Shown here piece after piece: positions 18,217 to 37,738 of a stretch of DNA of 64,000 bases. This DNA is from Shigella phage SH7. The translations under genes were made by a program, and so were the position numbers. The stretch is from the sequence record KX828711; one strand, written 5' to 3'. Each line of letters opens with the position of its first letter. Positions within the stretch are counted from its first letter, which is position 1. The notes beneath the pieces are model-generated. The model was not told where the DNA came from. It made no database searches and saw only the letters and a program-made list of their open reading frames with translations.

Positions 18217-18243
18217 TTTATTCTCCTTTGATTTGATAGGACT

Positions 18244-18273
18244 ACTATAACATAGTCCTATCAGTTTGTATAC
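18244..18273 (-). promoter_or_regulatory. early-type promoter with -10 inside a 9-bp inverted repeat
   Basis: Reverse complement GTATAC..18 nt..TATAGT; arms GATAGGACT/AGTCCTATC (18236-18262) bracket the -10. Confidence 0.45.
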
Positions 18274-18474
18274 TTATTTTGACATTTCTTCGATGTCACG
18301 ACGATACCCGTCACGAACTTCACGAAGAGCTTCAAGGCCACACATAGGCTCGATACCTGTAATGTGAACTTGATTAATCTGATACTCTACATCTTCTAAC
18401 TGAGCGAAAACATAACGACGTTCAGCTGCACAACCAGATTTAGCTTTACCGAAACGTTTATTCAAAGTAGTCAT
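18274..18474 (-). CDS. hypothetical small protein
   Basis: 66-aa ORF preceded by an early-type promoter. Confidence 0.45.
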   Translation of the reverse strand: MTTLNKRFGKAKSGCAAERRYVFAQLEDVEYQINQVHITGIEPMCGLEALREVRDGYRRDIEEMSK

Positions 18475-18512
18475 TTTGTATCTCCAATTTACTCATTTGT
18501 TTTGATAGGTCT

Positions 18513-18542
18513 ATAGTATCAACAACTACAGACCATGTAAAC
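18513..18542 (-). promoter_or_regulatory. early-type promoter (GTTTAC..TACTAT)
   Basis: Reverse complement GTTTAC..18 nt..TACTAT, immediately downstream of the 18573-18590 terminator. Confidence 0.55.
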
Positions 18543-18572
18543 CGTTTTGTGAAAAATTTTTGAAATAAAAAA

Positions 18573-18590
18573 GGGAGCCCGAAGGCTCCC
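18573..18590 (-). terminator. rho-independent terminator with UUCG tetraloop
   Basis: GGGAGCC-CGAA-GGCTCCC flanked by an A-run; on the minus strand a hairpin followed by UUUUUUAUUU. Confidence 0.75.
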
Positions 18591-18592
18591 TA

Positions 18593-19606
18593 TCATTTAT
18601 AATAACTTCGATGGTTTTCAAGATAGACCTTCTCAAGGAAGTCATCCCAAAAACCCATGTCCACTTTTTGCTGCATACCGTTCTTAGAAGCTTCAGTAGA
18701 TGCTGCTTCTACTTGATCGACCACATCTTCCAAAAACTCTTGAACGGTTTTAAATGGATGTTTACCCAACTTCACGTCGAGAATAAATGGAGCATCTTGG
18801 AGTGGATAAACCAAGTCACCAGTTTTGTAAATTTCCAATAGTTGAAGTCCACCACGACAGGCATGGCTCAGAGCTTTCCAGTCAATGCCTTCGTTGGCTT
18901 CGGCCTTACGAGCACGTTCACCATATTCAGCATCTAATTTGTTCAGTGACTGCTTAAGCTCAATAAGAGAAAGCGTTGTCTGATATTTACGACCCAACAC
19001 AGTGTAAAACGTTTGTGGGCCTGTTTTCTCATGATTATGGAACACCCATTCACAGAATTCGTTTTCTGGAAGACGATGCTTAATATCTTCAACTTTGGTG
19101 TGACGCTGCTTAATAGAACCATCTTCTTGGTAATCAATCCACTGCTCAGGGATTTGATTAACTATTTTCAATACATCGCGTAATGCAGCCAAACGAGAAC
19201 CCTTGACACCGTATTTAGAAGCTTGCTTGCGAACATATCCTAAATAGGATTTCATGTTAGTCGTATAAAAACGAGAACGGTTGTCTTGAATAAACTTCCA
19301 CACATCAGGCAAATCAGATTTAACCACTAGTTCAGGTGGAGTGTGAAGCATATCCAATGCTACAGTTTCACCATCTGCTGCTAATTTAAAGAAATATTTA
19401 AGACTGTATAGTTCATGGTCAATATCATCTTTAGTGTTTTTAGATGATGTGTTGTTAGTGTTTTTACTCATGTGCTCTTTAACATTTCCAATAAGAATAT
19501 CACGAGCAGGAGGAACAAAAATTTCTTTAAAATCTACATCAGATTCTGGGGTAGAAGTTCCATAAAGATGACTACCAAAATAGCTTTTCATTACTGTTTT
19601 CATCAT
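18593..19606 (-). CDS. Pol-beta-superfamily nucleotidyltransferase-like protein
   Basis: 337 aa; N-terminal hG[GS]..(10)..DhD signature FGSHLYGTSTPESDVDF; substrate unknown. Confidence 0.6.
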   Translation of the reverse strand: MMKTVMKSYFGSHLYGTSTPESDVDFKEIFVPPARDILIGNVKEHMSKNTNNTSSKNTKDDIDHELYSLKYFFKLAADGETVALDMLHTPPELVVKSDLPDVWKFIQDNRSRFYTTNMKSYLGYVRKQASKYGVKGSRLAALRDVLKIVNQIPEQWIDYQEDGSIKQRHTKVEDIKHRLPENEFCEWVFHNHEKTGPQTFYTVLGRKYQTTLSLIELKQSLNKLDAEYGERARKAEANEGIDWKALSHACRGGLQLLEIYKTGDLVYPLQDAPFILDVKLGKHPFKTVQEFLEDVVDQVEAASTEASKNGMQQKVDMGFWDDFLEKVYLENHRSYYK

Positions 19607-20064
19607 TCAGCCTTATATTCAATAACAGGACATACTTTAGCTTTACGAGATTTTAAAAATTCAACGATAATCGATTTCTTGGGTTGAATAGGAGGTAAAC
19701 CTTTATACGCTCTATCAATATTTTCTACGTGTAAAGCATAATCCTTTTTCCATTTATAATCTTTATATTTTTCACGCAAATGTGCAGGAATAACAAATGA
19801 ACCGATAATAAGTAAAACAACCAAAAGCGCAAGTATAAATGCTGATGGAAGCAAAGTCCATAAACTACCAAAAATAAGCCAACGTTGTAGGCTTTCTGCA
19901 CAAATAATTGTTAGCCCTACGAGTATAGCACATCCAAAAATAGAAACGAAAAATGTAGGAATGGCAATAGACCAAAAATATGCGCATAGTGTCTTAGGTC
20001 GTTGCCATTCATCGTTAAACAATTTGAATAATTTATAGTGCCAAGAGTTTTCATTAATAATCAT
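19603..20064 (-). CDS. membrane protein (2-3 TM)
   Basis: 153 aa with long hydrophobic segments; 4-nt overlap with the nucleotidyltransferase gene start. Confidence 0.6.
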   Translation of the reverse strand: MIINENSWHYKLFKLFNDEWQRPKTLCAYFWSIAIPTFFVSIFGCAILVGLTIICAESLQRWLIFGSLWTLLPSAFILALLVVLLIIGSFVIPAHLREKYKDYKWKKDYALHVENIDRAYKGLPPIQPKKSIIVEFLKSRKAKVCPVIEYKAE

Positions 20065-20066
20065 AA

Positions 20067-20588
20067 TTATCCTTTCATTGAAGGCGTAACAGTTGTTAAA
20101 TACTTAATCATAGCTTCAGCTTCTGATTTTGATAATGAAATTTCTCCATTGTTTTGACGAATAGAAATAAAATCCGGATGACGGTCACCACCAGCTTTTA
20201 AAACACACATATAAGTATCAACTTCATCTTCAATATTTGAAATGATTGAAGCAGTTCCACATGAATGCGGTTTTTGATAAATCAATGCAGCTTTTCTTCC
20301 GCCATTTGACTGTTCATAAACTTTTAATACATCAAACAAATCACTTCTTTTATCAATAGCTAAAATGTTATTTTCATCTTCAATGTTAAATCCTTCGGAT
20401 ACTTCATAAAGTGTCACCCATAAATCGCCAATATCAATAACAGCGTTCACTTTTCCATGACTTTCAAGAGCATGACAAATTTTCTTGATTTCGTCATAAC
20501 TCATTTTAATAATATCATCTCCTTGAATAAGAAAGATGTCATTTTTAAATTCAACACGAATTAAACCACTTCCACTTGAAATAAACAT
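20067..20588 (-). CDS. hypothetical protein, tandem paralog A
   Basis: 173 aa; shares GFNIE and C-terminal KxYLxxVxPxM blocks with the next gene. Confidence 0.6.
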   Translation of the reverse strand: MFISSGSGLIRVEFKNDIFLIQGDDIIKMSYDEIKKICHALESHGKVNAVIDIGDLWVTLYEVSEGFNIEDENNILAIDKRSDLFDVLKVYEQSNGGRKAALIYQKPHSCGTASIISNIEDEVDTYMCVLKAGGDRHPDFISIRQNNGEISLSKSEAEAMIKYLTTVTPSMKG

Positions 20589-20594
20589 ATTTCC

Positions 20595-21140
20595 TCACTT
20601 TGAAATCATAGTTGGAATGACAGAATCAAGATAAGTCTTTAGTGCAATAGCTTCGTCTTTGGTAAATGTGACAATATGTGCTCGAAAATCATCAATTTGA
20701 CGAATAGTTAAGACATCTCCATCTTCATAACATTTTGATACGTTTAAAACAGTTTCATCATTCTGATCGCAAGCGTTAGTAATAATAGCATTGCAATTTT
20801 TAAACCATTTTAAACTATGTTTTCTTTCATTAGAATAATAAAAATATTTAATCTTATCTATAAAACTATCCCAATGGATAACTGATAAGCATATTGACTC
20901 GCTTTCAATATTAAATCCTGGGCATGAAGAATAAAAATGAATTTTATGCTCATCATTAATGCTTACAATTTTATCAGTATAAGGATTTTCAATTTTGGTT
21001 AAATGAATGATTTCACTAGGCGTAAAATACAGCATATCGTCTTCTTGTGTCAAACGATACATATTATTTACTTTTTCTATAGCCAATTCACCAAAAAGTG
21101 AACTAACTTCTAATACTAATCGTTTCGCCGCTACCGTCAT
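20595..21140 (-). CDS. hypothetical protein, tandem paralog B
   Basis: 181 aa; paralog of 20067-20588. Confidence 0.6.
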   Translation of the reverse strand: MTVAAKRLVLEVSSLFGELAIEKVNNMYRLTQEDDMLYFTPSEIIHLTKIENPYTDKIVSINDEHKIHFYSSCPGFNIESESICLSVIHWDSFIDKIKYFYYSNERKHSLKWFKNCNAIITNACDQNDETVLNVSKCYEDGDVLTIRQIDDFRAHIVTFTKDEAIALKTYLDSVIPTMISK

Positions 21141-21272
21141 TACATACTCCTCTGAATCATATCAATAATGTTGTTCACCAGATTATAAGTAAACATTGGG
21201 TAATTATATTGAATCACCACATACACAACAAACAAAACTTTCATTCTCTTCTCCTTGGCAGTTGACAAGATT

Positions 21273-21302
21273 ACTATACCATAACCTTGCCAACTTGTAA
21301 AC
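21273..21302 (-). promoter_or_regulatory. early-type promoter (GTTTACA..TATAGT)
   Basis: Reverse complement GTTTACAagttggcaaggttatggTATAGT; flanked by imperfect inverted repeat TTGGCAG/TTGCCAA. Confidence 0.55.
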
Positions 21303-21467
21303 CATTAAATGACGTTTTCGATAAAATTCTGAAGCTTTGTATGAGCATCAACCATGATTTTCATTTCTTCCTTTGCGAAAGCTGTACCTCTTTCACGAGA
21401 AGAACATTCATAGTCAGAAACTGCATTAGCATATTCTTCAATTAGCTTCATTAAAAACATCTGCTTT

Positions 21468-21662
21468 TCAGTTTTCATTATTCCACCTAATCATTTCAAG
21501 ATATTGAACTAACTTAGCTTTGGATTTATCCAAATCCTTTTTAGCTGCTTCTATACCGTCGTATGAATATCCTTCACAATGCTCAACTGCTAATTGATAT
21601 GAATCTATTTCAATATCACGTGCTAATTTAATGATTTTTTCAAACTGTTCGCGTGTTAGCAT
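21468..21662 (-). CDS. hypothetical small acidic protein
   Basis: 64-aa ORF. Confidence 0.45.
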   Translation of the reverse strand: MLTREQFEKIIKLARDIEIDSYQLAVEHCEGYSYDGIEAAKKDLDKSKAKLVQYLEMIRWNNEN

Positions 21663-21664
21663 AC

Positions 21665-21868
21665 TTAAACTCTCGTATTATGATCGATAATTTCATCAAG
21701 AAACATATCTAACGCTTCTACAGCATTATTAACTTTATCTTCAAGTTCTTCAATACTTTTATTTGCAATGCCTGACGAAAACCAAGCAAAGTCACTAAGT
21801 TCCTCATCTGCTTTACGAATTAAAGCTACCAATTCCTTAATTTTATCCGCTTGTTCGATACTAATCAT
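21665..21868 (-). CDS. hypothetical small acidic protein
   Basis: Start at the internal Met (MISIEQ) with TAATG overlap to the upstream stop. Confidence 0.45.
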   Translation of the reverse strand: MISIEQADKIKELVALIRKADEELSDFAWFSSGIANKSIEELEDKVNNAVEALDMFLDEIIDHNTRV

Positions 21869-22056
21869 TATTCCACCACATATGAAAGAGAGAATATTGC
21901 ACACGCCATGTGAGTTGCAACTTCATCACACATATTATAACGTTTCTTAAGAAATTCTACAAGTTCTTCACTAGTAACTTCATCCATGTCGACGAAAAAA
22001 TCACCATTAATGATGACGTAGATATTTCCTTCTTGATTAAGTGCTTCAATTTTCAT
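21868..22056 (-). CDS. hypothetical small protein
   Basis: 62 aa from MKIEALNQ; the ORF extension GTIQLS is promoter sequence. Confidence 0.45.
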
Positions 22057-22084
22057 GATGTTCTCCTCTTTATCCGATAGTTGT

Positions 22085-22114
22085 ATAGTACCACAGCTCA
22101 AACGGAAAGTAAAC
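22085..22114 (-). promoter_or_regulatory. early-type promoter (GTTTAC..TACTAT)
   Basis: Same ~20-nt core (gatagttgtatagtacc) as the promoters at 16812 and 33922. Confidence 0.55.
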
Positions 22115-22130
22115 CGGTAAAATGAAAAAA

Positions 22131-22146
22131 GTCTCCCGAAGGAGAC
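22131..22146 (-). terminator. rho-independent terminator with UUCG tetraloop
   Basis: GTCTCC-CGAA-GGAGAC followed by UUUUUU on the minus strand, just after the 22152 stop. Confidence 0.7.
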
Positions 22147-22151
22147 TAATG

Positions 22152-22538
22152 TTATTCGAGGGAAAGAAGATACTTACTCTGGTAAAACATTCCAGTAATA
22201 TCATCTATCGTGCTTTGGATGGCTGGAGGCATTTCTTTATAAATGCTGTTAGATTGGTCTAGTATGTGATCAATCATTTTAATTGTGTCGGTAGGAAGTT
22301 TACTGGCATCTGGAATTGAAGGTGTGTATTTTCTACCAGAATACCCCAAATATTGCTCACCAAATTTATCAATCAAATCTGGCAACTCGGAGAAAATAAA
22401 ATCGTATGCTTTGTGTCTAGCATAACTTTTAGTTTCAAAATGTGCAGAATGAAAATAAGCTTGTGCAGCCATTAATAAACCTAAGTATTCATCTGCCTTT
22501 GAAGGTTTTCCACTTTGTGAAAAGTCGCTGAATTTCAT
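22152..22538 (-). CDS. hypothetical protein
   Basis: 128-aa ORF overlapping the rI-like gene stop by 4 nt. Confidence 0.55.
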
Positions 22539-22828
22539 TCAGTCTCCAATTTAATGTTCATAATTCTAGCGTATGATTGTGCCATCTCCGCGCCTCGTTC
22601 TATACATTCAAAATCAGAAGAGCACGGGTCATTTTTATAGGTCGTTCTCATAAAACTATAGAATTGTTCAGACGATTCTACGCTTTTATTTTCAAAAAGC
22701 ATATAAACGTGCCTAATACCAGATTCCATAAATTTATCAAAATGAGGATCGACATTCGCTTCAATCGATGGAGATAAAACAAATGACAATCCTAGCATGG
22801 CAAATAGTGCCGTTGCTTTTAAGGCCAT
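22535..22828 (-). CDS. rI: lysis-inhibition antiholin RI-like periplasmic protein
   Basis: 97 aa with N-terminal signal/SAR-like segment ALFAMLGLSFVLSPSIEA; adjacent to tk as rI is in T4. Confidence 0.65.
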   Translation of the reverse strand: MALKATALFAMLGLSFVLSPSIEANVDPHFDKFMESGIRHVYMLFENKSVESSEQFYSFMRTTYKNDPCSSDFECIERGAEMAQSYARIMNIKLETE

Positions 22829-22840
22829 AAAGGCCTCCTA

Positions 22841-23053
22841 TCATTTTTGTCCTGTATTTACTTTATGCCGATGCACGGCCTTAACTTTATCAAGGTATTT
22901 TTCAAAATTTCGCAATCTAGTATAGTCTGCCGGAGATTGGTTGAGTGATACTTCTCGACGCAAAGCTGAAATAACATTTCCAACTTCCCTACGAATTTCA
23001 TCTAATTGAAGCACAGTAAGATTGCGAAGTTGCTTTTCAGTTAATTGTAACAT
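22841..23053 (-). CDS. hypothetical small protein
   Basis: 70-aa ORF between rI and tk. Confidence 0.5.
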
Positions 23054-23095
23054 ATATACCCCTTTAGTTAGATAAACCTATTTATAACTTTTGCA

Positions 23096-23677
23096 CTAAC
23101 CGAGCTTTTTAGTTAATTCATTCCAATGTTTTCTACACAAAGAAACATAAATTTCATCGCCAATACAGATTTGATTACCCTCTTTAACTGGTGTTCCATC
23201 TTCCATTAATCGAGCTGTCATAATCGCTTTTTTACCACAATGACAAACTGCCTTTAGTTCAATAAGTTTATCTGCAATCGCTAAAAGTTCTTTAGAACCT
23301 TCAAACAATTTTCCAGCGAAATCAGTCCTTAATCCATAAGCCATAACAGGAACATTATATGTATCAACAATTCGGCTCAATTGATGCACCTGTTCAGTTT
23401 TTAAAAACTGAGCTTCATCTACAAATACGCAATGAATATCTTTTTGTGCTTCAGCCCATTTATAGAACTCGAAAATATCCATATCATCTGTAATAATATT
23501 CGCTTCCTGCTTAATTCCAATGCGAGAAACGACTTCACAGACAGAATCGCGAGTATCAATAGCAGGCTTAAGAACTAATACACTCATTCCACGTTCTTTA
23601 TAATTATGTGCAGCAGTCAAAAGAGAAGCAGATTTTCCAGCATTCATTGCTGCATAAGTAAAAATTAAACTCGCCAT
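23096..23677 (-). CDS. tk: thymidine kinase
   Basis: 193 aa; P-loop MNAGKS and zinc-binding Cys pairs (CHCG..CRKH) typical of TK1-type kinases. Confidence 0.9.
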   Translation of the reverse strand: MASLIFTYAAMNAGKSASLLTAAHNYKERGMSVLVLKPAIDTRDSVCEVVSRIGIKQEANIITDDMDIFEFYKWAEAQKDIHCVFVDEAQFLKTEQVHQLSRIVDTYNVPVMAYGLRTDFAGKLFEGSKELLAIADKLIELKAVCHCGKKAIMTARLMEDGTPVKEGNQICIGDEIYVSLCRKHWNELTKKLG

Positions 23678-23678
23678 C

Positions 23679-23867
23679 TTAGTCCTTAGTTAAATTTTCT
23701 AAATATGTTTCTAAATCATTTTCAACTTTATCGATAGATTTTACTAATTCGTAATATGTTTCGGCATCTCCATATTCAGAAGATATTTCAAAAGACAAAT
23801 CCTTTTCTAAACTAATAATTTCACCAACTAAAAATAATATTTCGTTCTTTTGTTCGCGAGTAATCAT
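23679..23867 (-). CDS. hypothetical small acidic protein
   Basis: 62-aa ORF. Confidence 0.5.
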   Translation of the reverse strand: MITREQKNEILFLVGEIISLEKDLSFEISSEYGDAETYYELVKSIDKVENDLETYLENLTKD

Positions 23868-24049
23868 AAGGAATTTATATAATTAATAAGTTCTTGTTCT
23901 TTATTATCGAATTCTTTAGAAAGTTCTTCGTACTCGTTTGCACTAAAAGGACCGCATTCATTACAAACTTTTTCCAATTCACTATTTTTATCCATAACTT
24001 CGTGGATAAGAGAAAAGAGTTTGTCTTTTTGTTCTTTGCTTAGGCTCAT
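23864..24049 (-). CDS. hypothetical small acidic protein
   Basis: 61-aa ORF, weakly similar to the preceding one. Confidence 0.5.
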   Translation of the reverse strand: MSLSKEQKDKLFSLIHEVMDKNSELEKVCNECGPFSANEYEELSKEFDNKEQELINYINSL

Positions 24050-24215
24050 ATATTAATTTCCAGAAGTTTTAAAATAATTCGCTTTTGCTTAAATATTTCC
24101 ACAGTTAAATGATCAGTATCTTTTTGACCAATTCCAATGGCAAAACCTTTATTAACAGCGAGTTCAATTAAATTATCAAGTTCACGTAACACTTCATATT
24201 GTAACTCAGAACTAT

Positions 24216-24428
24216 TCATTTCGGTTTACCTTCTTTAACGAAATCTGGATAAGGATAAAATCCCGAATAAAATCCTTCACCTTTATGATTGATGCATCCT
24301 TTATTAGAACAATAGCACCAATAATCGAAATCACAAACCATTTCATCGTTGCATAAAGCAAAAACAACCGGCCATTTACACTTTTCACAGTGGGCATTTT
24401 TAAGAATACTAGTTTGGCTCATAACCAT
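24216..24428 (-). CDS. Cys-rich small protein (probable zinc binding)
   Basis: 70 aa with 9 Cys including CEKC and CYCSNKGC. Confidence 0.5.
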   Translation of the reverse strand: MVMSQTSILKNAHCEKCKWPVVFALCNDEMVCDFDYWCYCSNKGCINHKGEGFYSGFYPYPDFVKEGKPK

Positions 24429-24646
24429 GTCACCTTTAAGCAGTATTCTTCTACATGCTGTTTACGACCTTTCTTATCAATAAAGGTATATTCAACGAAT
24501 GTTCCAATGTAGTCTTTATCTACATCATGTGGACTATTAATTGGACATTTAGTACGGCAAATGCGTTCCCATTGACGAATAATTACTGCCTTATTCTTTG
24601 GGTCATACGGATGTGGATAATGTATATTCATAATAACGGTTCCCAA
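24419..24646 (-). CDS. hypothetical small protein
   Basis: 75-aa ORF with Cys pair CRTKC. Confidence 0.5.
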   Translation of the reverse strand: MGTVIMNIHYPHPYDPKNKAVIIRQWERICRTKCPINSPHDVDKDYIGTFVEYTFIDKKGRKQHVEEYCLKVTWL

Positions 24647-25977: not shown

Positions 25978-25984
25978 GCTTACC

Positions 25985-26446: not shown

Positions 26447-26473
26447 GTTATTCTCCTCTTAACTGATAGAAAA

Positions 26474-26503
26474 ATTATACCACAGTCAAGAGGAAAAGTA
26501 AAC
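26474..26503 (-). promoter_or_regulatory. early-type promoter (GTTTAC..TATAAT)
   Basis: Reverse complement GTTTACttttcctcttgactgtggTATAAT upstream of regB. Confidence 0.55.
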
Positions 26504-26505
26504 AG

Positions 26506-27626: not shown

Positions 27627-27633
27627 ATAAACC

Positions 27634-29113: not shown

Positions 29114-29129
29114 GTGTTTCCTTTAATTT

Positions 29130-29447: not shown

Positions 29448-29501
29448 GTGTTTCCTTTAAATATTTTAATTAGTAATTTATCTATTCAAGTAACTGTGAA
29501 T

Positions 29502-29531
29502 ATACTATCACAATTCCAAGAGAAAGTAAAC
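29502..29531 (-). promoter_or_regulatory. early-type promoter (GTTTAC..TAGTAT)
   Basis: Reverse complement GTTTAC..18 nt..TAGTAT upstream of the IP genes. Confidence 0.5.
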
Positions 29532-29535
29532 AGCT

Positions 29536-30504
<969 letters not shown>

Positions 30505-30508
<4 letters not shown>

Positions 30509-30993: not shown

Positions 30994-31352
30994 TTAATTT
31001 TCCTACAATCACTCACAAACTCTTCCATTGATTCTTTTTCAATATAAGACATGTAGCTATTATATTCTTTTAATTGTATTTTGTAATCTTTTTTTCTTTG
31101 CCAATTTATTTTAAAATTATCATAATGAAAATATAACATAGTACCAAAGAATGAAAATAATGAAATAATTTTAGTATAGTGAAGTTCACTCCAAACTTCT
31201 ATTATATCTACTGTGCCGTCAATGTTTAAAATAAGACAGTCAATTAACAATCCAAAAAGACTACCCGCAAGAGCTGCTGCCAACGCCACAGCAAAAATTA
31301 AAAATGACTCAGGAAGCGAATATTTGACTTTATTTAGTTTTGGCTTTTGCAT
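30990..31352 (-). CDS. membrane protein, junction-motif family member
   Basis: 120 aa; N-terminal TM; ends FVSDCRKIK. Confidence 0.6.
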   Translation of the reverse strand: MQKPKLNKVKYSLPESFLIFAVALAAALAGSLFGLLIDCLILNIDGTVDIIEVWSELHYTKIISLFSFFGTMLYFHYDNFKINWQRKKDYKIQLKEYNSYMSYIEKESMEEFVSDCRKIK

Positions 31353-31726
31353 CGTGATTCCTTAACAAATTTCATAATTTCATCAAATTCATACGCAGCA
31401 AGTTTAAGCTGATGTTCCCTTTTAATCTTTTTACACTGTGCTTTCCAATCACGTACGCGTTTACGATAATGTCTTCCTTGATACCAGTATCCTACCCAAT
31501 TTACAGGTACTAATAAAAGTGGAACTATTAATGGAAGAATTAGCATTAACACAAGTATTTCGCCAGAATCAATATCAGTCATAACATCTAAAACACCTCC
31601 AATAATCAATAGAATTACAAATGATATGAGTATAACAGGACCTATTAATACATCAGTAGAAATTAGCTGGCGCTTTAATTCATACTTTAAGGGTTTACTT
31701 GGAAGGTATAGTGATGGCTTTGACAT
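31334..31726 (-). CDS. membrane protein, junction-motif family member
   Basis: Start at MSKPSLY (second ATG, better RBS); TM-rich; ends FVKESRCK. Confidence 0.55.
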   Translation of the reverse strand: MSKPSLYLPSKPLKYELKRQLISTDVLIGPVILISFVILLIIGGVLDVMTDIDSGEILVLMLILPLIVPLLLVPVNWVGYWYQGRHYRKRVRDWKAQCKKIKREHQLKLAAYEFDEIMKFVKESRCKSQN

Positions 31727-32309
31727 ATTCTCTACATTCCTTAACAAATTTTTCTAATAATAAATCGCTTTCAAAATTGGGATTTTCTACGAATTTATCA
31801 AAAAGATCATCAACAATAGTTAAGATATTCTTTTTACTAAGAATACGTTTATTTTCATGCTTCGTTTCAGAATCAACTATAAGAGTAAAGAAATATTTCT
31901 TGCCCTGAAATTTTACAGTAGTATCAATATAGAATAAATTTGATTTTTGTAAATTACGTTTAAACCATGCATCACTTAAACTATAAACGCCAAGATAATC
32001 ATAATCGTCGTTTAAATAACAGACCGTCCATTCAGGAGAAACAAAATCAGTAAATTCAACGTCAAAATCGCATGTTAATAAATGAATTGATTCAATACTG
32101 TTAATAAGTATTCCAGGACGTATTAAAGATTTTTTACCTCTAGAAAATCTTCCAGAAAGACTTTCATCAGTTTCATATGAAGAACCCCAATAATAATTAC
32201 GTCCTTCTGCCATACGTTTAAGAGCATTTAATAATTGGTCTGGAACATCAACCTGTCTTTGGAACTCTTCAAACATTGAATTGAAATCACTTTGCATTTT
32301 CATTTTCAT
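31695..32309 (-). CDS. hypothetical protein, junction-motif family member
   Basis: 204 aa; ends FVKECREY; GGAG RBS; preceded by a terminator hairpin. Confidence 0.6.
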   Translation of the reverse strand: MKMKMQSDFNSMFEEFQRQVDVPDQLLNALKRMAEGRNYYWGSSYETDESLSGRFSRGKKSLIRPGILINSIESIHLLTCDFDVEFTDFVSPEWTVCYLNDDYDYLGVYSLSDAWFKRNLQKSNLFYIDTTVKFQGKKYFFTLIVDSETKHENKRILSKKNILTIVDDLFDKFVENPNFESDLLLEKFVKECREYVKAITIPSK

Positions 32310-32330
32310 TCCTATTTACTCCAAGTAATA

Positions 32331-32344
32331 GGGGCCGAAGCCCC
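32331..32344 (-). terminator. UUCG-tetraloop hairpin (terminator or stabiliser)
   Basis: GGGGC-CGAA-GCCCC between the 32351 stop and the 32309 start. Confidence 0.55.
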
Positions 32345-32350
32345 TTATCA

Positions 32351-32944
32351 TTATTTCAGAGAATTAATGTATTCCTGAACATCAGCAGAGGTAGTTTCAA
32401 CCCCAGAAATATTACCGTTAAAGGTTTCAACTCGAGCAAGAGTATCTTCAATATCAACCTTAGTCAGTGCTGCAATTTCAACTACATCATCAGCAGTACT
32501 AATTCCGAGGGCATTCGCGGCGCGAGTTTCACGGATATATTCCAATTTAACTGCAAGTTCTTGGCGAGCATCATCTAACTCAACTACTTTCTTGGCGATT
32601 TCAATTCGCATTTCAGCATAACCATCAGCTTTAGTAGTTAACTGCTCAGCTGTTCGACGATATAGTAAACCGAGTTTAGCATGCATTGTTACATCTTGAC
32701 CTTCGGAAAGAAGCTTGCGAATTTCACGCTCTTTTGATTCGGCCTGTCGATTCTTTTCGACAATAAGTTCACGAATACGCTTTTCTTCATTAATAGATTT
32801 AACAGAAGCAGTTTTTAGATCTTTAATCTTATCAAGTAGTTTTGCTGCCGCAGCAGTATACTGTTCTTCAACAGATAGATTTTTAGCCATAGCAGAACCA
32901 AGTTTAGTGCGAATAAACTCAACAATTTTCTTCAGTGTGTTCAT
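32351..32944 (-). CDS. coiled-coil protein
   Basis: 197 aa, largely helical/charged; no enzymatic motif. Confidence 0.6.
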
Positions 32945-33001
32945 AGTATTTCCTTAGGTTGGTATAATTAGATAATATCACGTTTCTAATAGATTGTAAA
33001 C

Positions 33002-33337
33002 TTATTCTTCGTCTAGCTCGTCGATAAAGGCGTCGATGGCCTCGACAACGGCATCATTGATAGCCAATAAAATAAAATCATCGTCAGTACCTTTAGAAGA
33101 TTCTAAAGCATTGATATATGCTTGGTTGGCGAGTTCCCAAGCCTTTTTAAAATAAGGAGCTTCATCATCGGGGCCAACGAAACGCACGCCTTCAAAGATA
33201 CGGTTAGCATAATCCAATACCCACTGTACAGGCATGTTTTGAGAACGTTCGTTAAACTCTTTAAATTCCTTAGATTCAAAAAGCTCTTCAGGATAATCAT
33301 TTCTATTACAAAAAGCTTTACTAAAGTTACGTTTCAT
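33002..33337 (-). CDS. hypothetical acidic protein
   Basis: 111-aa ORF with an early promoter upstream. Confidence 0.55.
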   Translation of the reverse strand: MKRNFSKAFCNRNDYPEELFESKEFKEFNERSQNMPVQWVLDYANRIFEGVRFVGPDDEAPYFKKAWELANQAYINALESSKGTDDDFILLAINDAVVEAIDAFIDELDEE

Positions 33338-33363
33338 AATGTTTTCCTTGTGATGATAAGTCT

Positions 33364-33393
33364 ATAGTAACGCCTTCATACTTAGATGTAAAC
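33364..33393 (-). promoter_or_regulatory. early-type promoter (GTTTACA..TACTAT)
   Basis: Reverse complement GTTTACAtctaagtatgaaggcgtTACTAT. Confidence 0.55.
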
Positions 33394-33546
33394 TATTTCA
33401 ACATCGCCTTTTGCTGCTTTATAACCTTCAGCCCAAGATACAACCGAGTTTTTATCTGAAGATTCAAATTCTGGCATTGGGCTTTCGCCAATGTTCACGC
33501 AGTATGTTTCTTCATTTTCGTCGAACCAAATAATTAAAGTAGTCAT
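33379..33546 (-). CDS. hypothetical small protein (55 aa)
   Basis: Manual translation MTTLIIWFDENEETYC..; not in the track (below 60 aa). Confidence 0.35.
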
Positions 33547-33582
33547 TTATTTCTCCGTTTCTGTATTTGTTTTGATAAGTCT

Positions 33583-33612
33583 ATAATAACACCATCCTTG
33601 GTGTTTGTACAC
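33583..33612 (-). promoter_or_regulatory. early-type promoter with CCATCCTTGG hairpin in the spacer
   Basis: Reverse complement GTGTACaaaCACCAaggaTGGTGtTATTAT. Confidence 0.5.
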
Positions 33613-33614
33613 AA

Positions 33615-33878
33615 TTATTTCATATTATTGAAATATTCTTCTGCGATTTCGTCGTTATCATGGTAAACTTTAGAAGACAGTTTAACATAACCTTCAGCAG
33701 TGAACATGTTAATCACAACCTTTACAGTATACCACTGACCGTCTTCATTACCCATTACTGCGTAAGTTTCAAACATCGGATGATCAGGACCGATAACTTT
33801 AATATCATTCACTGTACGACCGAAATCTTCTGAAACGCATTTCATAAAGAAGTTGAACAGTTCGCCGTAATTATCCAT
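33615..33878 (-). CDS. hypothetical protein
   Basis: 87 aa from MDNYGELF (GGAG RBS); the upstream ORF extension is promoter sequence. Confidence 0.5.
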   Translation of the reverse strand: MDNYGELFNFFMKCVSEDFGRTVNDIKVIGPDHPMFETYAVMGNEDGQWYTVKVVINMFTAEGYVKLSSKVYHDNDEIAEEYFNNMK

Positions 33879-33921
33879 TTCGTTCTCCAAGTTGTTTTCT
33901 GTATCAGTAGTTGATAGTTGT

Positions 33922-33951
33922 ATAGTACCATGGAAGAACAGGGATGTAAAC
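33922..33951 (-). promoter_or_regulatory. early-type promoter (GTTTAC..TACTAT)
   Basis: Shares the gatagttgtatagtacc core with the promoters at 16812 and 22085. Confidence 0.55.
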
Positions 33952-34074
33952 AGTTTTGTGAAAAAATTTTTAGGGAATTCTAGGGCGGAGAGGGGCAATT
34001 AAAAGGTAGGATAATATATTATAAAGGGTATAAACTAAATGATGCTTAGAGAGGCCCGGAAAGGCCTAGATACC

Positions 34075-34102
34075 AAAAAGCCCCAACCTTTCGGTCGGGG
34101 CT
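34075..34102 (-). terminator. rho-independent terminator with GAAA loop; copy 1 of a 33-nt direct repeat
   Basis: Minus strand AGCCCCGACCGAAAGGUUGGGGCUUUUU just after the 34110 stop. Confidence 0.7.
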
Positions 34103-34109
34103 AAGAATG

Positions 34110-34583
34110 TTATTTGATTTGTTTAGCAGACCAAATGCGGTCTTTAATAATTTTTTGGATGTCTTCAACATACTCAAGAGAGTGAGCATGTGGGTTATCT
34201 TTGAAACTATAAGCACGAGCTAGCTTTTGGCCTTCAGTTTTGATTACTAAAAGCTCTTTAAGGATAGCTTCATATTTGGAGATAATTCCTTTAACAATAT
34301 TTTTTTCTTGTGCAGCTTTAGGATCTGCTTTAGGAGCAGGTTTACCCGAAGCCTTTGCAAAAGCAGCGCCAGTAGCAACTAGACTTTTCCAGGCCATACT
34401 AACCGCATTTCCTGTAAATCCTTCTGCTTTCATGTCGCGAGCAAATTGGAATCGCGATTCGTCAGAAGCATCTTTATAGGAATATTTACCCGCGGCAATG
34501 GCAGCTTTTGCAACAGCTTGAATTTCAGTGCTAGATGCTTCATTTAACACCGCTTCATTTAAAAATTGAGCATATGATTTCAT
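34110..34583 (-). CDS. internal-protein-like protein with capsid-targeting sequence, outside the canonical ip loci
   Basis: 157 aa; N-terminal MKSYAQFLNEA matches the IP capsid-targeting consensus with an LxE cleavage site; Ala/Lys-rich body. Confidence 0.6.
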   Translation of the reverse strand: MKSYAQFLNEAVLNEASSTEIQAVAKAAIAAGKYSYKDASDESRFQFARDMKAEGFTGNAVSMAWKSLVATGAAFAKASGKPAPKADPKAAQEKNIVKGIISKYEAILKELLVIKTEGQKLARAYSFKDNPHAHSLEYVEDIQKIIKDRIWSAKQIK

Positions 34584-34628
34584 CTTATTTCCTGTTTTAA
34601 TTCGTGGTTTTAATATACTTATTTATAC

Positions 34629-34657
34629 TAAAAAGCCCCAACCTTTCGGCTGGGGCT
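34629..34657 (-). terminator. rho-independent terminator with GAAA loop; copy 2 of the 33-nt direct repeat
   Basis: Near-identical to 34075-34102 (3 mismatches); hairpin followed by UUUUU on the minus strand. Confidence 0.7.
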
Positions 34658-34708
34658 AAGCCTTGCGGCAACCTTGTCGGGGTTCCACCTGCTAAGGCAA
34701 GTGTTTGT

Positions 34709-34800
34709 ACGAAACGCCGGGATTCGAACCCGGTTACCAAGCAGTTGACGCTACTCAATATTTTTAAAAGGCCATATCTCGACCATATCCGAACGTTCCG
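34709..34800 (-). ncRNA. tRNA-like stable RNA candidate (acceptor stem plus T-arm, no anticodon arm, no CCA)
   Basis: Minus-strand CGGAACG pairs with CGUUUCG around a canonical T-arm CCGGG-UUCGAAU-CCCGG; lies in a 315-nt ORF-free interval. Confidence 0.35.
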
Positions 34801-34968
34801 TCAAAAACGCTACTCGGCTTACGGCAAAGATATTTCCTCGAATCGATAATTCGGTGCGCCGTTTCTGCTGTGATATAAGGGGACATTAACAGATCGTAAA
34901 GATTTGTTAATGCCAGTCCTTAAACAGGGAACATCAGTCCGACGACTTACCGGTAGCGACCCGGTTTC

Positions 34969-35319
34969 TTAATATTCTTTTAAAGCATCAATCTGTTCAC
35001 GACGTTTACGCCATAAATCAATTGCTTCATACGCAGATTCAGCATTTCGAATTGGACGGCATTTATATAAAGACTTGTGATTTTGATATTGCGTAGATAA
35101 CGGAATTTTATCTAAAAGGTCTTTACGTTCAAAGTATTCGTAACCATCTAAGCCAAATGAACGATTTTTGAGAAATTGCCAATGACCATATTCGTTTTCG
35201 ACATAAACATAATCCGCGTGTTGATAAAGCAAATTAATTACACGTTCAGAAATAATAGTGTCATTGTGATTAAAATAAAATGTTAAATCATGAACTACTA
35301 AATAAACATTACCTTTCAT
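34969..35319 (-). CDS. hypothetical protein downstream of tRNA-Arg
   Basis: 116-aa ORF beginning 17 nt after tRNA-Arg with a GAGGA RBS. Confidence 0.5.
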   Translation of the reverse strand: MKGNVYLVVHDLTFYFNHNDTIISERVINLLYQHADYVYVENEYGHWQFLKNRSFGLDGYEYFERKDLLDKIPLSTQYQNHKSLYKCRPIRNAESAYEAIDLWRKRREQIDALKEY

Positions 35320-35335
35320 ATTTTCCTCACTTAAT

Positions 35336-35411
35336 TGGTCGAGGCAGTAGGGATCGAACCTACGACCTAGGACTTAGAAGGTCCTTGCTCTTCCTTCTGA
35401 GCTATGCCCCG
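35336..35411 (-). tRNA. tRNA-Arg (anticodon UCU)
   Basis: Hand-folded cloverleaf: 7-bp acceptor, anticodon loop CUUCUAA, T-loop TTCGATC, encoded CCA. Confidence 0.8.
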
Positions 35412-35415
35412 TAAT

Positions 35416-35491
35416 TGGGGTGACCGATGGGAGTCGAACCCATGACTACGAGAATCACAATCTCGAGTTCTACCAACTGAACTACGGCCAC
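35416..35491 (-). tRNA. tRNA-His (anticodon GUG), tentative
   Basis: Cloverleaf with anticodon loop UUGUGAU and discriminator C73, but no encoded G-1. Confidence 0.55.
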
Positions 35492-35605
35492 ATTAATACC
35501 TACTCCAACAATCAAGATGTCTTCACACGAAATTAAGAGAAGAGTGATCAGTTCAACCCCGATAATCGCGTCAAGTAGATATTAATGTGACAGTTGTCAC
35601 AAATT

Positions 35606-35680
35606 TGGCGGACGTGATAGGATTCGAACCTATAACCAATCGCTTAACAGGCGATCGCTCTGCCATTGAGCTACACATCC
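35606..35680 (-). tRNA. tRNA-Asn (anticodon GUU)
   Basis: Cloverleaf, anticodon loop CUGUUAA, T-loop TTCGAAT, discriminator G, CCA encoded. Confidence 0.65.
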
Positions 35681-35684
35681 AAAT

Positions 35685-35771
35685 TGGTGGGGAGTGATGG
35701 AGTCGAACCACCCGAGTCGCAATGACAATGGATTTACAGTCCACACCGCTACCTCTACGGGATAACTCCCC
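35685..35771 (-). tRNA. tRNA-Tyr (anticodon GUA), long variable arm
   Basis: 87 nt; perfect 7-bp acceptor, anticodon loop CUGUAAA, extra arm, discriminator A, CCA. Confidence 0.6.
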
Positions 35772-35784
35772 TTAATTCTTAATT

Positions 35785-35859
35785 TGGTGGCCCTAGGTGG
35801 AATTGAACCACCATCTGGCGATTATGAGTCGCTTGCTTGAACCTTCCAGCTACAGGGCC
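35785..35859 (-). tRNA. tRNA with CAU anticodon (Ile2-type or Met)
   Basis: Cloverleaf, anticodon loop CUCAUAA; occupies the position of T4 tRNA-Ile. Confidence 0.7.
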
Positions 35860-35860
35860 T

Positions 35861-35936
35861 TGGTGCTGATTGACGGAATCGAACCGCCGACCTTCTCATT
35901 ACAAGTGAGTTGCTCTACCTACTGAGCTAAATCAGC
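35861..35936 (-). tRNA. tRNA-Thr (anticodon UGU)
   Basis: Matches my recollection of T4 tRNA-Thr (GCTGATTTAGCTCAGTAGG...); anticodon loop CUUGUAA. Confidence 0.85.
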
Positions 35937-35941
35937 AAAAC

Positions 35942-36031
35942 TGGCGGAGGCAATAGGATTTGAACCTATGAGTCGCCGGAGCGACTGCCGGTTTTCAAGA
36001 CCGGTGCATTAAACCACTCTGCCACGCCTCC
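35942..36031 (-). tRNA. tRNA-Ser (anticodon UGA), long variable arm
   Basis: 90 nt; anticodon loop CUUGAAA, discriminator G, CCA encoded. Confidence 0.8.
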
Positions 36032-36033
36032 AG

Positions 36034-36107
36034 TCTCCATACAAGGATTTGAACCTTGGACCTCCTGATCCCAAATCAGGCGCTCTACCAAACTGAGCTA
36101 CACGGAG
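36034..36107 (-). tRNA. tRNA-Pro (anticodon UGG), CCA not encoded
   Basis: Anticodon loop UUUGGGA; 3 end abuts tRNA-Ser with a 2-nt spacer. Confidence 0.8.
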
Positions 36108-36117
36108 TAAATTAAAT

Positions 36118-36191
<74 letters not shown>

Positions 36192-36196
36192 AAATT

Positions 36197-36283
36197 TGGT
36201 GCGAGAAGTGGGACTCGAACCCACAAGGAAATCATTCCGCAGCATTTTAAGTGCTGTGCCTTTACCAATTTGACCATTCTCGC
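36197..36283 (-). tRNA. tRNA-Leu (anticodon UAA), long variable arm
   Basis: 87 nt; anticodon loop CUUAAAA; CCA encoded. Confidence 0.8.
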
Positions 36284-36284
36284 G

Positions 36285-36357
36285 CTGGGAATAAAGGACT
36301 CGAACCTTTGCATCCTGGAATCAAAATCCAGTGCCTTACCAACTTGGCTAATTCCCA
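36285..36357 (-). tRNA. tRNA-Gln (anticodon UUG), CCA not encoded
   Basis: Anticodon loop UUUUGAU; 1-nt spacer to tRNA-Leu. Confidence 0.8.
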
Positions 36358-36370
36358 ATTATTAACAAAG

Positions 36371-36389
36371 GCTCTTAAGCAAGAGCCCT
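36371..36389 (-). terminator. hairpin upstream of the tRNA cluster
   Basis: GGGCTCTTGCTTAAGAGCC followed by UUUGUUAAUAA on the minus strand. Confidence 0.45.
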
Positions 36390-36454
36390 TGATGATAGAG
36401 GGTATTAATCAGTGCGATATGAGTTAATAATAACAAATAATTCTTAAAGCATAT

Positions 36455-36748
36455 TTACCATTTATGATAATACATATTTACGATGCATTCAAGACCCAAA
36501 GGATTTTTGAAAATATCATATTCAAGAGGACCTTTTTCTGTTTCGATAAAGAAATCAAAATTTACTGTATTAAATTTACGGTCTTCCTTCACTAATTTAA
36601 CTTGTGAAGATGAACGGTCAATGTAAACCTTTTCAACTTCAAAATATGTTAAAATGCCATAATCATCAATCAAGGCTTTAGCTGCTTCTTGATCATATTT
36701 ATATCCATTTTCAATGGATGATACTTTCGCATAAAGAATCATTATCAA
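36455..36748 (-). CDS. hypothetical protein
   Basis: 97-aa ORF. Confidence 0.5.
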   Translation of the reverse strand: MIMILYAKVSSIENGYKYDQEAAKALIDDYGILTYFEVEKVYIDRSSSQVKLVKEDRKFNTVNFDFFIETEKGPLEYDIFKNPLGLECIVNMYYHKW

Positions 36749-37164
36749 CCTTCATCAACAATAGTATGCGTATTGGCATTTACAATTTGCCACCAATCAA
36801 AGCGATTAGAACCATAATCTGGTTTGTTTTCATTTTCTTTGATAATGTCACGGAGTTCATCTTCGGTAGCGGCTTTCGCTATTAAATCAGCATATCCACC
36901 ACGAGGATAATAATTATCACCTGCAAAAAGTAAAAAGTTTGGTTTAATGTTATTGAACTCTTCAAGAGTAATAACTTTTCCTGACGGTTGAACAATCTCT
37001 ACATATTTATATCCCAATTTTTGAGCAGCATCTACTGCTTCAAGCAAAGTATCATGAGCCCATCCAATTTGACAACCTGGCTTTTCAGATGGATTAGCCT
37101 GATAATCCGCATACACTTTATACATTCTATTCACCTTTAGAAATTTTATCCATAACGATAGCAA
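36745..37164 (-). CDS. hypothetical protein
   Basis: 139-aa ORF; start may be the internal Met MYKVYADY. Confidence 0.5.
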   Translation of the reverse strand: MLSLWIKFLKVNRMYKVYADYQANPSEKPGCQIGWAHDTLLEAVDAAQKLGYKYVEIVQPSGKVITLEEFNNIKPNFLLFAGDNYYPRGGYADLIAKAATEDELRDIIKENENKPDYGSNRFDWWQIVNANTHTIVDEG

Positions 37165-37312
37165 TTAAACCAATTAAAAATGCTACTACAAGTGAAAAAA
37201 CATTTTCTGCTGTAGTCAATAATCCGCATATAAATCCAACAAACATTGAAAAACTAAAAGCGGAAGCAGAAATTGCAATAGCAACATTTCGAATTAATTC
37301 ACAACGTTTCAT
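37127..37312 (-). CDS. small membrane protein
   Basis: 61 aa, almost entirely hydrophobic; early promoter upstream. Confidence 0.45.
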   Translation of the reverse strand: MKRCELIRNVAIAISASAFSFSMFVGFICGLLTTAENVFSLVVAFLIGLIAIVMDKISKGE

Positions 37313-37340
37313 TTTATTCTCCTCGGTAGTTGATAGGGTA

Positions 37341-37370
37341 ATAGTATCACTACTAAAACCCTATGTAAAC
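37341..37370 (-). promoter_or_regulatory. early-type promoter (GTTTAC..TACTAT)
   Basis: Reverse complement GTTTACatagggttttagtagtgaTACTAT; -10 inside an inverted repeat. Confidence 0.55.
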
Positions 37371-37388
37371 AACTTTGTGAAATATTTA

Positions 37389-37676
37389 TTACAAAAGATT
37401 TTTAGCAATAATCTTGAGATGTGCCGCAGAAATGTGTTTAGCTTTAAACAACGCAGTTTCTTCAGCAGGAGAGATAATGATTGTAGCACCATCCTTTTTA
37501 GCAGACCACCCATCACCTAGGTAAACAGTACCTTTGATTTCTTCGCCATCAACCAAGCTAATCATTGGTTTACCTTCTCGTCCTTTATTTGCTTTAATAA
37601 CTTCAGAAGTAAGAGTAGCTTCAGTAATAGTAGAAACCGGGGTAGTTGTAGAAGTAAACTCTTTGAAAGTTTTCAT
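37389..37676 (-). CDS. ipI: internal protein I (injected anti-restriction protein)
   Basis: 95 aa; MKTFKEFTSTTTPVSTITEA capsid-targeting sequence; matches T4 IPI as recalled. Confidence 0.85.
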   Translation of the reverse strand: MKTFKEFTSTTTPVSTITEATLTSEVIKANKGREGKPMISLVDGEEIKGTVYLGDGWSAKKDGATIIISPAEETALFKAKHISAAHLKIIAKNLL

Positions 37677-37708
37677 TTTTTATTTTCCTAATTAATTTTG
37701 ATGAGATA

Positions 37709-37738
37709 ATAGTATCACTACCTCATCAGCATGTAAAC
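37709..37738 (-). promoter_or_regulatory. early-type promoter (GTTTAC..TACTAT) inside inverted repeat TGATGAG/CTCATCA
   Basis: Upstream of ipI; inverted repeat arms at 37699-37705 and 37722-37728. Confidence 0.55.

Follow-up and report, generated by a model that had tools for sequence, protein, structure and literature searches.

In the 64,000-nucleotide (nt) stretch of Shigella phage SH7 analysed here (sequence record KX828711; the window), five early promoters carry their -10 hexamer inside an inverted repeat. We found that these inverted repeats are selected, structure-forming elements: they fold, they are complementary beyond chance, their arms covary between relatives, they favour the sense strand and they largely exclude an upstream terminator. 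The five sites are probably composite promoter/stem-loop cassettes of the PeSL type, in which the hairpin would exist only in read-through RNA and may act as an attenuator or as a barrier to decay. That the stems work at the level of RNA, and what they would do there biochemically, we infer from these patterns. An earlier note on this DNA had drawn attention to the sites and suggested that they were either operator-like elements by which early transcription is shut off or cruciform-prone sequences.

The window comes from a Tequatrovirus, with 98% identity to Escherichia phage Ozark and hundreds of matches to T4-like phages. Its first part, from position 1 to about 41000, follows the T4 gene order, with early and middle genes that run from a-gt.x/55 through to gene 3. 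We read the five sites on the minus strand because the genes of that part lie on it. All five are minus-strand T4-type early promoters (GTTTAC-N18-TA(C/T)(T/A)(A/G)T with the extended -10 motif TGn), the -35 of the 18244 promoter being GTATAC instead of GTTTAC; promoters are cited here by the first position of their -10 hexamer. Each has an upstream A/T tract of the TTTCACAAA type, upstream stop codons about 0-12 nt from the -35, and a GGAG/AGGA Shine-Dalgarno (SD) sequence with ATG 20-40 nt 3' of the -10. Their orthologues are early promoters of T4. The pattern GTTTAC-N16-19-TANNAT occurred 15 times in the window against 1.14 expected, and we accepted 14 early promoters at 6-38 kb, in the nrdC.x, mobD.x, vs.x, e.x and IP/tRNA regions. 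The promoter elements, the downstream SD and ATG, and the T4 orthologues together bear out the description of the sites as early promoters.

Repeat detection and folding of the sense RNA together place the -10 of all five promoters in the loop or stem of an inverted repeat, as had been claimed. Watson-Crick repeats of 11 nt (18234-18244/18253-18263; 100% complementary, 8-nt gap), 14 nt (37333-37346/37351-37364; 86%), 10 nt (37699-37708/37719-37728; 90%) and 6 nt (21255-21260/21288-21293; TTGGCA/TGCCAA) were found. At 18507-18534, no Watson-Crick repeat of at least 6 nt matched the GGTCT/AGACC arms named in the earlier note; TTGATA/TATCAA and a CTATAG palindrome were found nearby, and the 10-bp stem at 18508-18534 shows up solely in the RNA fold of the sense strand. 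Scored against 200 dinucleotide shuffles, the sense RNAs gave z-scores of -3.3 to -6.0 (Table 1). The loop, or the upper end of the 3' arm, contains the -10 and TGn. At 18508-18534 the 3' arm holds most of the -10; at 37333-37364 an outer stem (ATAGGGT/ACCCTAT) is joined by an inner one (TAGTA/TACTA) that recruits the -10 itself. A scan of the whole window with Rfam at the gathering threshold returned only 11 tRNAs (35339-36357) and no family at the five stems.

Since short repeats are common in AT-rich DNA, we used an arm-swap control that preserves promoter composition: every spacer was matched against the downstream 40 nt of its own promoter and against those of all the others. For the 14 promoters of the window, the free energy (dG) of the own-arm duplex was -11.0 kcal/mol, against -7.3 kcal/mol across promoters (permutation p < 5e-5). 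The 32 unique TGn promoters of the T4 early regions behaved in the same way (-11.4 kcal/mol with own arms, -7.1 with swapped ones), with about 13 of the 32 at or past the edge of the swapped distribution. In a pooled set of 154 T4-like promoter sequences from the window, T4 and IMG/VR (142 after further deduplication), which is not a clean phylogenetic sample, an ungapped stem score of at least 7 was reached in 62% versus 16% of chimeras, and of at least 9 in 35% versus 2.4%. The IMG/VR pattern, GTTTAC-N15-TGnTACTAT, gave many chance matches in unrelated contigs among the matches listed, and sequences were retained only with a downstream SD and ATG.

The stems fall into classes. In class a, to which all five sites belong, the spacer at about -29 to -16 pairs with -7 to +5, start box included. 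The class-a register centred at -11.5 was found in 17% of promoters and the one centred at -14.5 in 8.5%, each versus 2% with shuffled partners. The -14.5 register is a feature of a subset only, with no extra pairing in 122 unselected promoters (41.3% vs 41.2%). In class b the spacer pairs with the SD region instead (regB, nrdC.8 and, more weakly, e.8). A small hairpin entirely within the spacer occurs at 13834-13863 and at T4 2429, 50944, 167057, 55355 and 146846; some of these use the extended -10 (CCACA-AGGA-TGTGG) and others are a perfect palindrome (CATAAAG/CTTTATG). Such spacer-internal hairpins are another published PeSL subclass and are missed by the spacer-versus-downstream statistic.

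Comparison with relatives showed that pairing outlasts sequence. The repeats, whose loss from orthologous promoters the earlier note had named as the outcome that would tell against it, are kept in T4 and in IMG/VR relatives. The T4 orthologue at mobD.2 has a perfect 14-bp stem (AGTTGACAAGATTA/TAATCTTGTCAACT), and both A->G changes in the window turn pairs into G.U; at ipI, ACCTCATCA in T4 reads ATCTCATCA in the window, a C->T change by which G-C becomes G.U. Thus all three arm differences between window and T4 create G.U pairs. The 37333-37364 stem is kept in T4 and, with variants, at loci L013, L043 and L044. The 18234-18263 cassette is identical in L172 and has related GGTAGGACT/AGTCCTA(C/T)C cassettes in L016-L018, and cassettes related to 18508-18534 (GGTCTATAG/CTATAGACC) occur in L020-L026. 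The four IMG/VR loci neighbouring mobD.1 are near-identical and uninformative.

At 36 loci downstream of 57B and 37 upstream of nrdC.10, nearly every promoter cassette has a stem whose arms vary while complementarity stays. Compensatory series include GATAGG/CCTATC, the intermediate GGTAGG/CCTATC and GGTAGG/CCTACC; AGGTCT/AGACCT, AGGTCT/AGGCCT and AGGGCT/AGCCCT; and GGTATGAG with CCTCATACC or CTTCATACC. In an ungapped alignment of the 122 unique unselected promoters, the -11.5 register was paired at 50.2%; shuffling the partners 500 times gave 44.8 +/- 1.0% and never more than 48.4%, and sliding by 1-3 nt gave 32-41%. With pairing above both controls and the arms divergent, the repeats are therefore conserved as structure and not as sequence.

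The wobble pairs carry information about the strand. Under a scoring symmetric for G.T and A.C, own stems contained 44 G.T and 19 A.C, while chimeras had 368:385; at positions outside the conserved promoter elements the ratios were 27:14 and 249:249. The sense strand was the more stable at five of five sites, by 1.8-10.3 kcal/mol, and the sense advantage in T4 was -1.95 kcal/mol for own pairs versus -0.73 for chimeras. Both results favour a sense RNA: a cruciform would have to form on both strands, and wobble pairing makes no difference to a protein site.

A cruciform or single-stranded DNA hairpin would have to be an element of the DNA itself, either a recombination hot spot that shuffles cassettes or a supercoil-sensitive promoter switch, and we consider this unlikely. 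T4 Endo VII cuts branched DNA, which speaks for the idea, as do several T4 versions that are perfect palindromes of 10-14 bp (57961, 73910 and 129890, for example) and the 11-nt, 100% repeat at window 18234-18263. That repeat is nevertheless the only perfect one of the five (the others are 86-90% complementary or only 6 nt), and extrusion is poor where stems are interrupted or loops measure 6-10 nt. A G.T on one strand is an A.C on the other, yet G.T outnumbers A.C by about 2:1 where controls give 1:1. Antisense hairpins are weak at four of the five sites (-8.2 to -13.0 kcal/mol, z about -2), and the depletion beside upstream terminators described below is expected of an RNA element and not of a DNA one. 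Crossovers do fall in or beside the stem-loop of PeSLs (PMC2839356), and the breakpoints of the window/T4 swap lie inside the promoter, but homologous recombination between cassettes needs only shared promoter sequence and no palindrome. The suggestion of cruciform-prone sequence finds support at one perfect repeat and is weakened by the four imperfect ones, by the sense-strand and G.T bias, and by the depletion near terminators.

We think it very unlikely that a change in superhelicity minutes into infection extrudes the repeats, leaving the -10 and TGn single-stranded, destroying the duplex promoter and so shutting off early transcription independently of AsiA/ModA, with the extruded forms as Endo VII targets that seed cassette shuffling. 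The early promoters of coliphage N4 do have an inverted repeat just upstream of the start, and the virion RNA polymerase recognises the extruded DNA hairpin. Unlike those, the promoters here are ordinary duplex sigma70 promoters whose -35, TGn and -10 are full and whose arms vary.

Terminators and embedded stems tend to exclude each other. On the minus strand, the terminator scan flagged only 18572-18591 and 22130-22147 and none at the five stems, which are followed not by a U-tract but by A/C-rich leaders such as CAAAACAAA. In T4, an upstream terminator was present at 0 of 12 strong-stem promoters and at 7 of 19 others, and the strong-stem promoters have their upstream stop codons no more than 12 nt away from the -35. 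Among the pooled promoters, 4/23 with an upstream terminator had a stem score of at least 8, against 63/118 without one (Fisher p = 0.0024; Mann-Whitney p = 0.00026). This exclusivity suggests that the element works on read-through RNA and, where there is little space, is fitted into the promoter itself.

Some embedded hairpins of more distant relatives are plain terminators, as in L201 (GCCCAGGCA-GTTTACAT-TGCCTGGGC-TTTT) and at RB49 3174 (AAGGGAGAUUCUC-UAUAAU-GGGAGUCUCCCUU-UUUUCUUUU). The hairpin of L177, L199, L201 and L203, 5' of nrdC.10 homologues, straddles the -35 and not the -10. That of L201 and L203 is rich in G+C, with TTTT after it, and so forms an intrinsic terminator whose loop contains the -35 hexamer and whose U-tract falls within the promoter spacer.

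It is quite unlikely that the repeats have no function, being either chance matches in AT-rich DNA or by-products of cassette duplication and quasipalindrome-templated mutation. Five-base matches are indeed no more than chance would give (4-5 bp is the mode across promoters), roughly half of the early promoters do not rise above background, and many cassettes are clearly related by descent. Quasipalindrome-templated correction is also well documented in T4 and could perfect repeats without selection. Neither process accounts for the own-versus-swapped statistics and the shuffle z-scores, or for unrelated arms in the same architecture in T-even phages and RB49, and a neutral DNA process does not predict a sense-strand G.T bias or an anti-correlation with terminators.

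Our preferred reading, that of composite cassettes active in read-through RNA, would work as follows. With the upstream gene ending no more than about a dozen bases from the -35, there would be no room for a separate intergenic hairpin, and the hairpin would therefore be built from promoter positions free to vary. Its 5' arm would occupy the -35/-10 spacer and its 3' arm the discriminator and start region, with the constrained TGn and -10 left in the loop or stem top. The promoter's own transcript cannot form the hairpin, because it starts inside the 3' arm, so only read-through RNA from upstream folds; the hairpin would in effect mark read-through transcripts at the gene junction. A class-a stem may then serve as an intercistronic boundary, attenuating or pausing read-through, blocking exonucleolytic decay of the upstream message, or both, and would stand in for the canonical terminator of roomier junctions.

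In class b, the read-through RNA would be masked for translation and for RegB, and the promoter-proximal RNA would not; folding models make such masking of the ribosome/RegB site likely. Predicted accessibility of the start region in read-through versus own RNA was 0.18 vs 0.53 for regB (ratio 0.34), 0.36 vs 0.60 for nrdC.8 (ratio 0.60) and 0.30 vs 0.39 for e.8. Compensatory changes preserve the regB stem across three diverged lineages (protein identity 100%, 77% and 68%; loci L002-L012), with the arms TTTTCCTCTTGACTG/CAGTTAAGAGGAGAA, TTCTCCTCTAGTTG/CAACTAGAGGAGAA and TCTCCTGTAAG/CTTACAGGAGA. The SD paired in it is GGAG, RegB's own cleavage site, and read-through regB RNA is likely, on these predictions, to be masked from both ribosomes and RegB. 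Promoter-embedded stems are not discussed in the RegB paper (PMC1702504), and the RegB reviews that we found do not mention the regB stem.

That the five sites themselves hide a ribosome binding site in read-through RNA, in the manner of T4 e, soc, 49 and I-TevI, we think highly improbable. The mechanism fits the sister promoters of regB and nrdC.8 in the window, and in some relatives a class-a stem is nested in an outer class-b stem that pairs with the SD, for example TTTCCTTG-AGGGCTAT...ATAGCCCT...CAAGGAGA. However, the 3' arms of the five stems end 10-20 nt short of the SD, and the ratios of SD-to-AUG accessibility in read-through over own RNA were 1.03 (18244), 0.56 (18513), 1.43 (21273), 0.90 (37341) and 1.00 (37709). 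Accessibility thus drops only at 18513, and we rejected masking for the other four sites.

Table 1. Promoter-embedded stems, terminators and the inserted open reading frame in the window; free energies in kcal/mol
Feature	Position	Strand	-35	-10	Gene downstream	Sense RNA dG (z)	Antisense dG	Description
nrdC.10 promoter hairpin	18234..18263	-	GTATAC, 18268-18273	TATAGT, 18244-18249	nrdC.10	-17.7 (-6.0)	-15.9	12-bp stem, 6-nt loop; right arm AGTCCTATCA spans -6..+4
66-aa-ORF promoter hairpin	18508..18534	-	18537-18542	TACTAT, 18513-18518	66-aa open reading frame (ORF)	-15.2 (-3.3)	-10.7	10-bp stem GGUCUGUAGU/ACUAUAGACC
mobD.2-type promoter hairpin	21260..21295	-	21297-21302	TATAGT, 21273-21278	mobD.2	-19.2 (-5.1)	-8.9	15-bp stem, 2 G.U
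trna.4 promoter hairpin	37333..37364	-	37365-37370	TACTAT, 37341-37346	trna.4	-15.6 (-3.4)	-13.0	7+5 bp
ipI promoter hairpin	37699..37728	-	37733-37738	TACTAT, 37709-37714	ipI	-14.8 (-4.5)	-8.2	13-bp stem, 4-nt loop
nrdC.8 class-b stem	16789..16829	-		16812-16817		-20.9		GUUCCUCUGUGG / CUACGGAGGAAC
regB class-b stem	26451..26497	-		26474-26479		-22.4		18 bp
e.8-type class-b stem, weaker	33881..33940	-		33922-33927				GUUCU-U-CCA / UGG-AGAAC with distant SD; T4 orthologue 70667
Canonical intrinsic terminator	18572..18591	-						AGGGAGCC-TTCG-GGCTCCCT + TTTTTT; just 5' of the 18513 promoter; identical in T4
Canonical intrinsic terminator	22130..22147	-						5' of the 22085 promoter, which has no strong embedded stem
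66-aa ORF	18274..18474	-						MTTLNKRFGKAKSGCAAERRYVFAQLEDVEYQINQVHITGIEPMCGLEALREVRDGYRRDIEEMSK; between nrdC.11 and nrdC.10; absent from T4; flanked by the 18513 and 18244 cassettes

Several points weigh against the reading of the five sites as cassettes that act on read-through RNA. Because no U-tract follows them, class-a stems are not canonical intrinsic terminators. They leave the ribosome site unmasked at four of the five sites (ratios 0.9-1.4), which makes their biochemical role a guess. The anti-correlation with terminators could partly reflect the descent of a few cassette families, and the 18513 site has terminator and stem together. More generally, the promoters are related by evolution, which makes the counts non-independent. 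At unconstrained positions the excess of G.T is only modest, and several class-a stems of T4, being perfect Watson-Crick palindromes, fold equally on both strands and give no strand information. We found no T4 3'-end or Term-seq paper in the literature.

The TTGATAG-like box that the earlier note saw beside most of the sites is real, with an exact match at three of the five and variants (CTCATCA, CTTGTCA) at two. Read on the plus strand, it corresponds to a start-site consensus whose position is fixed: C(C/T)TATCAA from -3 to +5, within which CTATCA spans -2 to +4 and, in 80% of promoters, the +1 is an A. An exact CTATCA is found in 44/142 pooled promoters and in 11/32 of those in T4, and it is equally present where there is no repeat at all (T4 55355 and 163644, for example). 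Our start-site call agrees with the T4 GenBank feature Pe133295, 7 nt after the -10 called at 133302. TTGATA on the plus strand looks like a -35, but we rejected an antisense promoter there: by inspection the gaps are 6-15 nt, which leaves no -10-like hexamer at usable spacing, and for the TTGATA boxes beside 18244 and 18513 the promoter scan reported no plus-strand promoter.

An identical 15-nt start region, ACAACTATCAACTAC, follows TACTAT in many otherwise dissimilar early promoters (window 16812, 33922 and 22085; T4 27051, 53914, 55355, 70667, 163644 and 167057). It is much more conserved than a start site needs; it could provide homology for recombination or belong to the leader, with a part in translation, S1 binding or RNase action, for instance.

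An operator, that is, a repeat over the -10 and +1 bound by a dimeric phage early protein that shuts off early transcription, was worth testing because the shut-off of early promoters is mechanistically unexplained; according to reviews, it is independent of AsiA/ModA (PMC2988021; PMC3014915). Overlap with the -10 and +1 is a typical repressor position, and the CTATCA box is common to many promoters. Yet that box is the sole shared motif, a half-site at a fixed position that is also present without a dyad partner; the arms otherwise have no common sequence and covary between promoters and between orthologues. The stems occupy at least two registers, another class reaches the SD, and just 35-60% of early promoters possess a stem, whereas shut-off is a general event. 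Substitutions compatible with G.U would also be irrelevant to protein-DNA recognition. The proposal of operator-like shut-off sites fails on the covarying arms, the variable registers and the partial promoter coverage, and we regard such an operator as extremely unlikely.

Composite cassettes acting on read-through RNA have close precedents. In RB49 and phi1, PeSLs combine strong sigma70-type early promoters with stem-loops, most commonly between the -35 and -10 or overlapping the -10; their stems are drawn with G-T pairs, and one stem-loop was terminator-like in a lacZ assay (Arbiol et al. 2010, PMC2839356). Recombination crossovers are placed within the stem-loop or next to it, the cassettes are described as having a part in cassette shuffling, and experiments with RB49/phi1 showed mini-circle formation by recombination between cassettes (PMC2839356). 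As in those phages, an early promoter with an AT-rich upstream region and a stem-loop precedes the SD and start codon of a small gene; the cassettes recur many times across hyperplastic regions, on either side of ORFs that vary among close relatives. We re-derived the RB49 layout, and at 3174, 36958, 39102 and 42327 the loop contains the -10 hexamer. There the consensus is TTGACA/TATAAT, whereas here it is GTTTAC/TGn/TAYTAT. RB49 stems are G/C-rich, directly flank the hexamer and centre at about -9.5, and some carry a U-tract and are plain terminators; the five stems here are AT-richer, centre at -11.5 or -14.5, take the start box into the 3' arm and have no U-tract.

The PeSLs of PST and T4 (Comeau, Arbiol and Krisch 2014, PMC4122927) come from the same phage group, with the consensus TTTACW-N17-TAYWAT. 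Their terminator-plus-promoter layout is seen here at 18572-18591/18513 and 22130-22147/22085, and the nrdC.10 locus shows the same kind of cassette swap relative to T4. Unlike them, the stems described here lie inside the promoter, at junctions too tight for an upstream hairpin, and mostly exclude an upstream terminator. Between them, the five sites show the features by which PeSLs are known: a sigma70-type early promoter, a stable overlapping stem-loop, an SD and start codon with an upstream stop, repetition among small non-essential ORFs and swap junctions in the cassette. The arrangement is a T-even instance of the published PeSL kind, to which terminator exclusivity, registers fixed on the start box and clear covariation are added.

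The swap is seen directly at nrdC.10. Compared with T4 (55295-55480), the window is identical up to the -35; the 66-aa ORF and another cassette come next, and the match to T4 resumes at the ribosome site of nrdC.10, GGAGAATAAAATG. Both breakpoints are inside promoter elements, between the -35 and the SD. In IMG/VR relatives the nrdC.11/nrdC.10 junction is occupied by at least three different cassettes, and varied cassettes are also found in the IP locus.

In T4 e, soc, 49 and I-TevI, a promoter lies in the 5' arm or loop of a hairpin at the translation start; RNA initiated upstream folds, and promoter-proximal RNA lacks the 5' arm (PMC3014915). The same logic fits the regB, nrdC.8 and e.8 promoters. 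Those internal promoters are late, or middle and late, and delay expression, whereas the ones here are early, and the five stems exclude the SD. Rho-independent terminators likewise place an RNA hairpin at a gene junction, and embedded hairpins of distant relatives do have a U-tract (L201, L203 and RB49 3174). The five stems differ in being AT-richer, with loops of 4-8 nt and no U-tract.

These results suggest that the published picture of T4/PST PeSLs, with the hairpin upstream of the promoter, is incomplete, and that compact T-even junctions build the hairpin into the promoter, as RB49 does. Genes with embedded stems would have two mRNA isoforms, one with the hairpin and one without. For the regB class, these isoforms offer a testable reason why GGAG might behave differently in translation and RegB cleavage on promoter-proximal and on read-through RNA. 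A tempting candidate for the unsolved shut-off of early promoters, the operator, is removed. In synthetic T4 cassettes, base changes in the spacer or start region would also break an RNA structure.

Three further observations were made. In the T4 record (AF158101), a GenBank note at 133300-133313 (L170 14301-14314) states that these 14 nt were formerly given as the inverted complement and that the change 'corrects' Pe133295. The segment is the loop and -10 of a class-a hairpin (GGTAGAG...CTCTACC), and the inversion is either a palindrome sequencing artefact or a real loop-inversion polymorphism. Good GTTTAC-N18-TATAAT matches lie inside coding sequence on the minus strand at 5688-5717 and 10216-10245, without TGn or a nearby start codon; both are kept in T4 (41232 and 47423) and are candidate internal early promoters. 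Finally, the minus-strand tRNA cluster at 35339-36357 has 11 tRNA genes by Rfam compared with eight annotated in the T4 record, so that extra tRNAs are present here.

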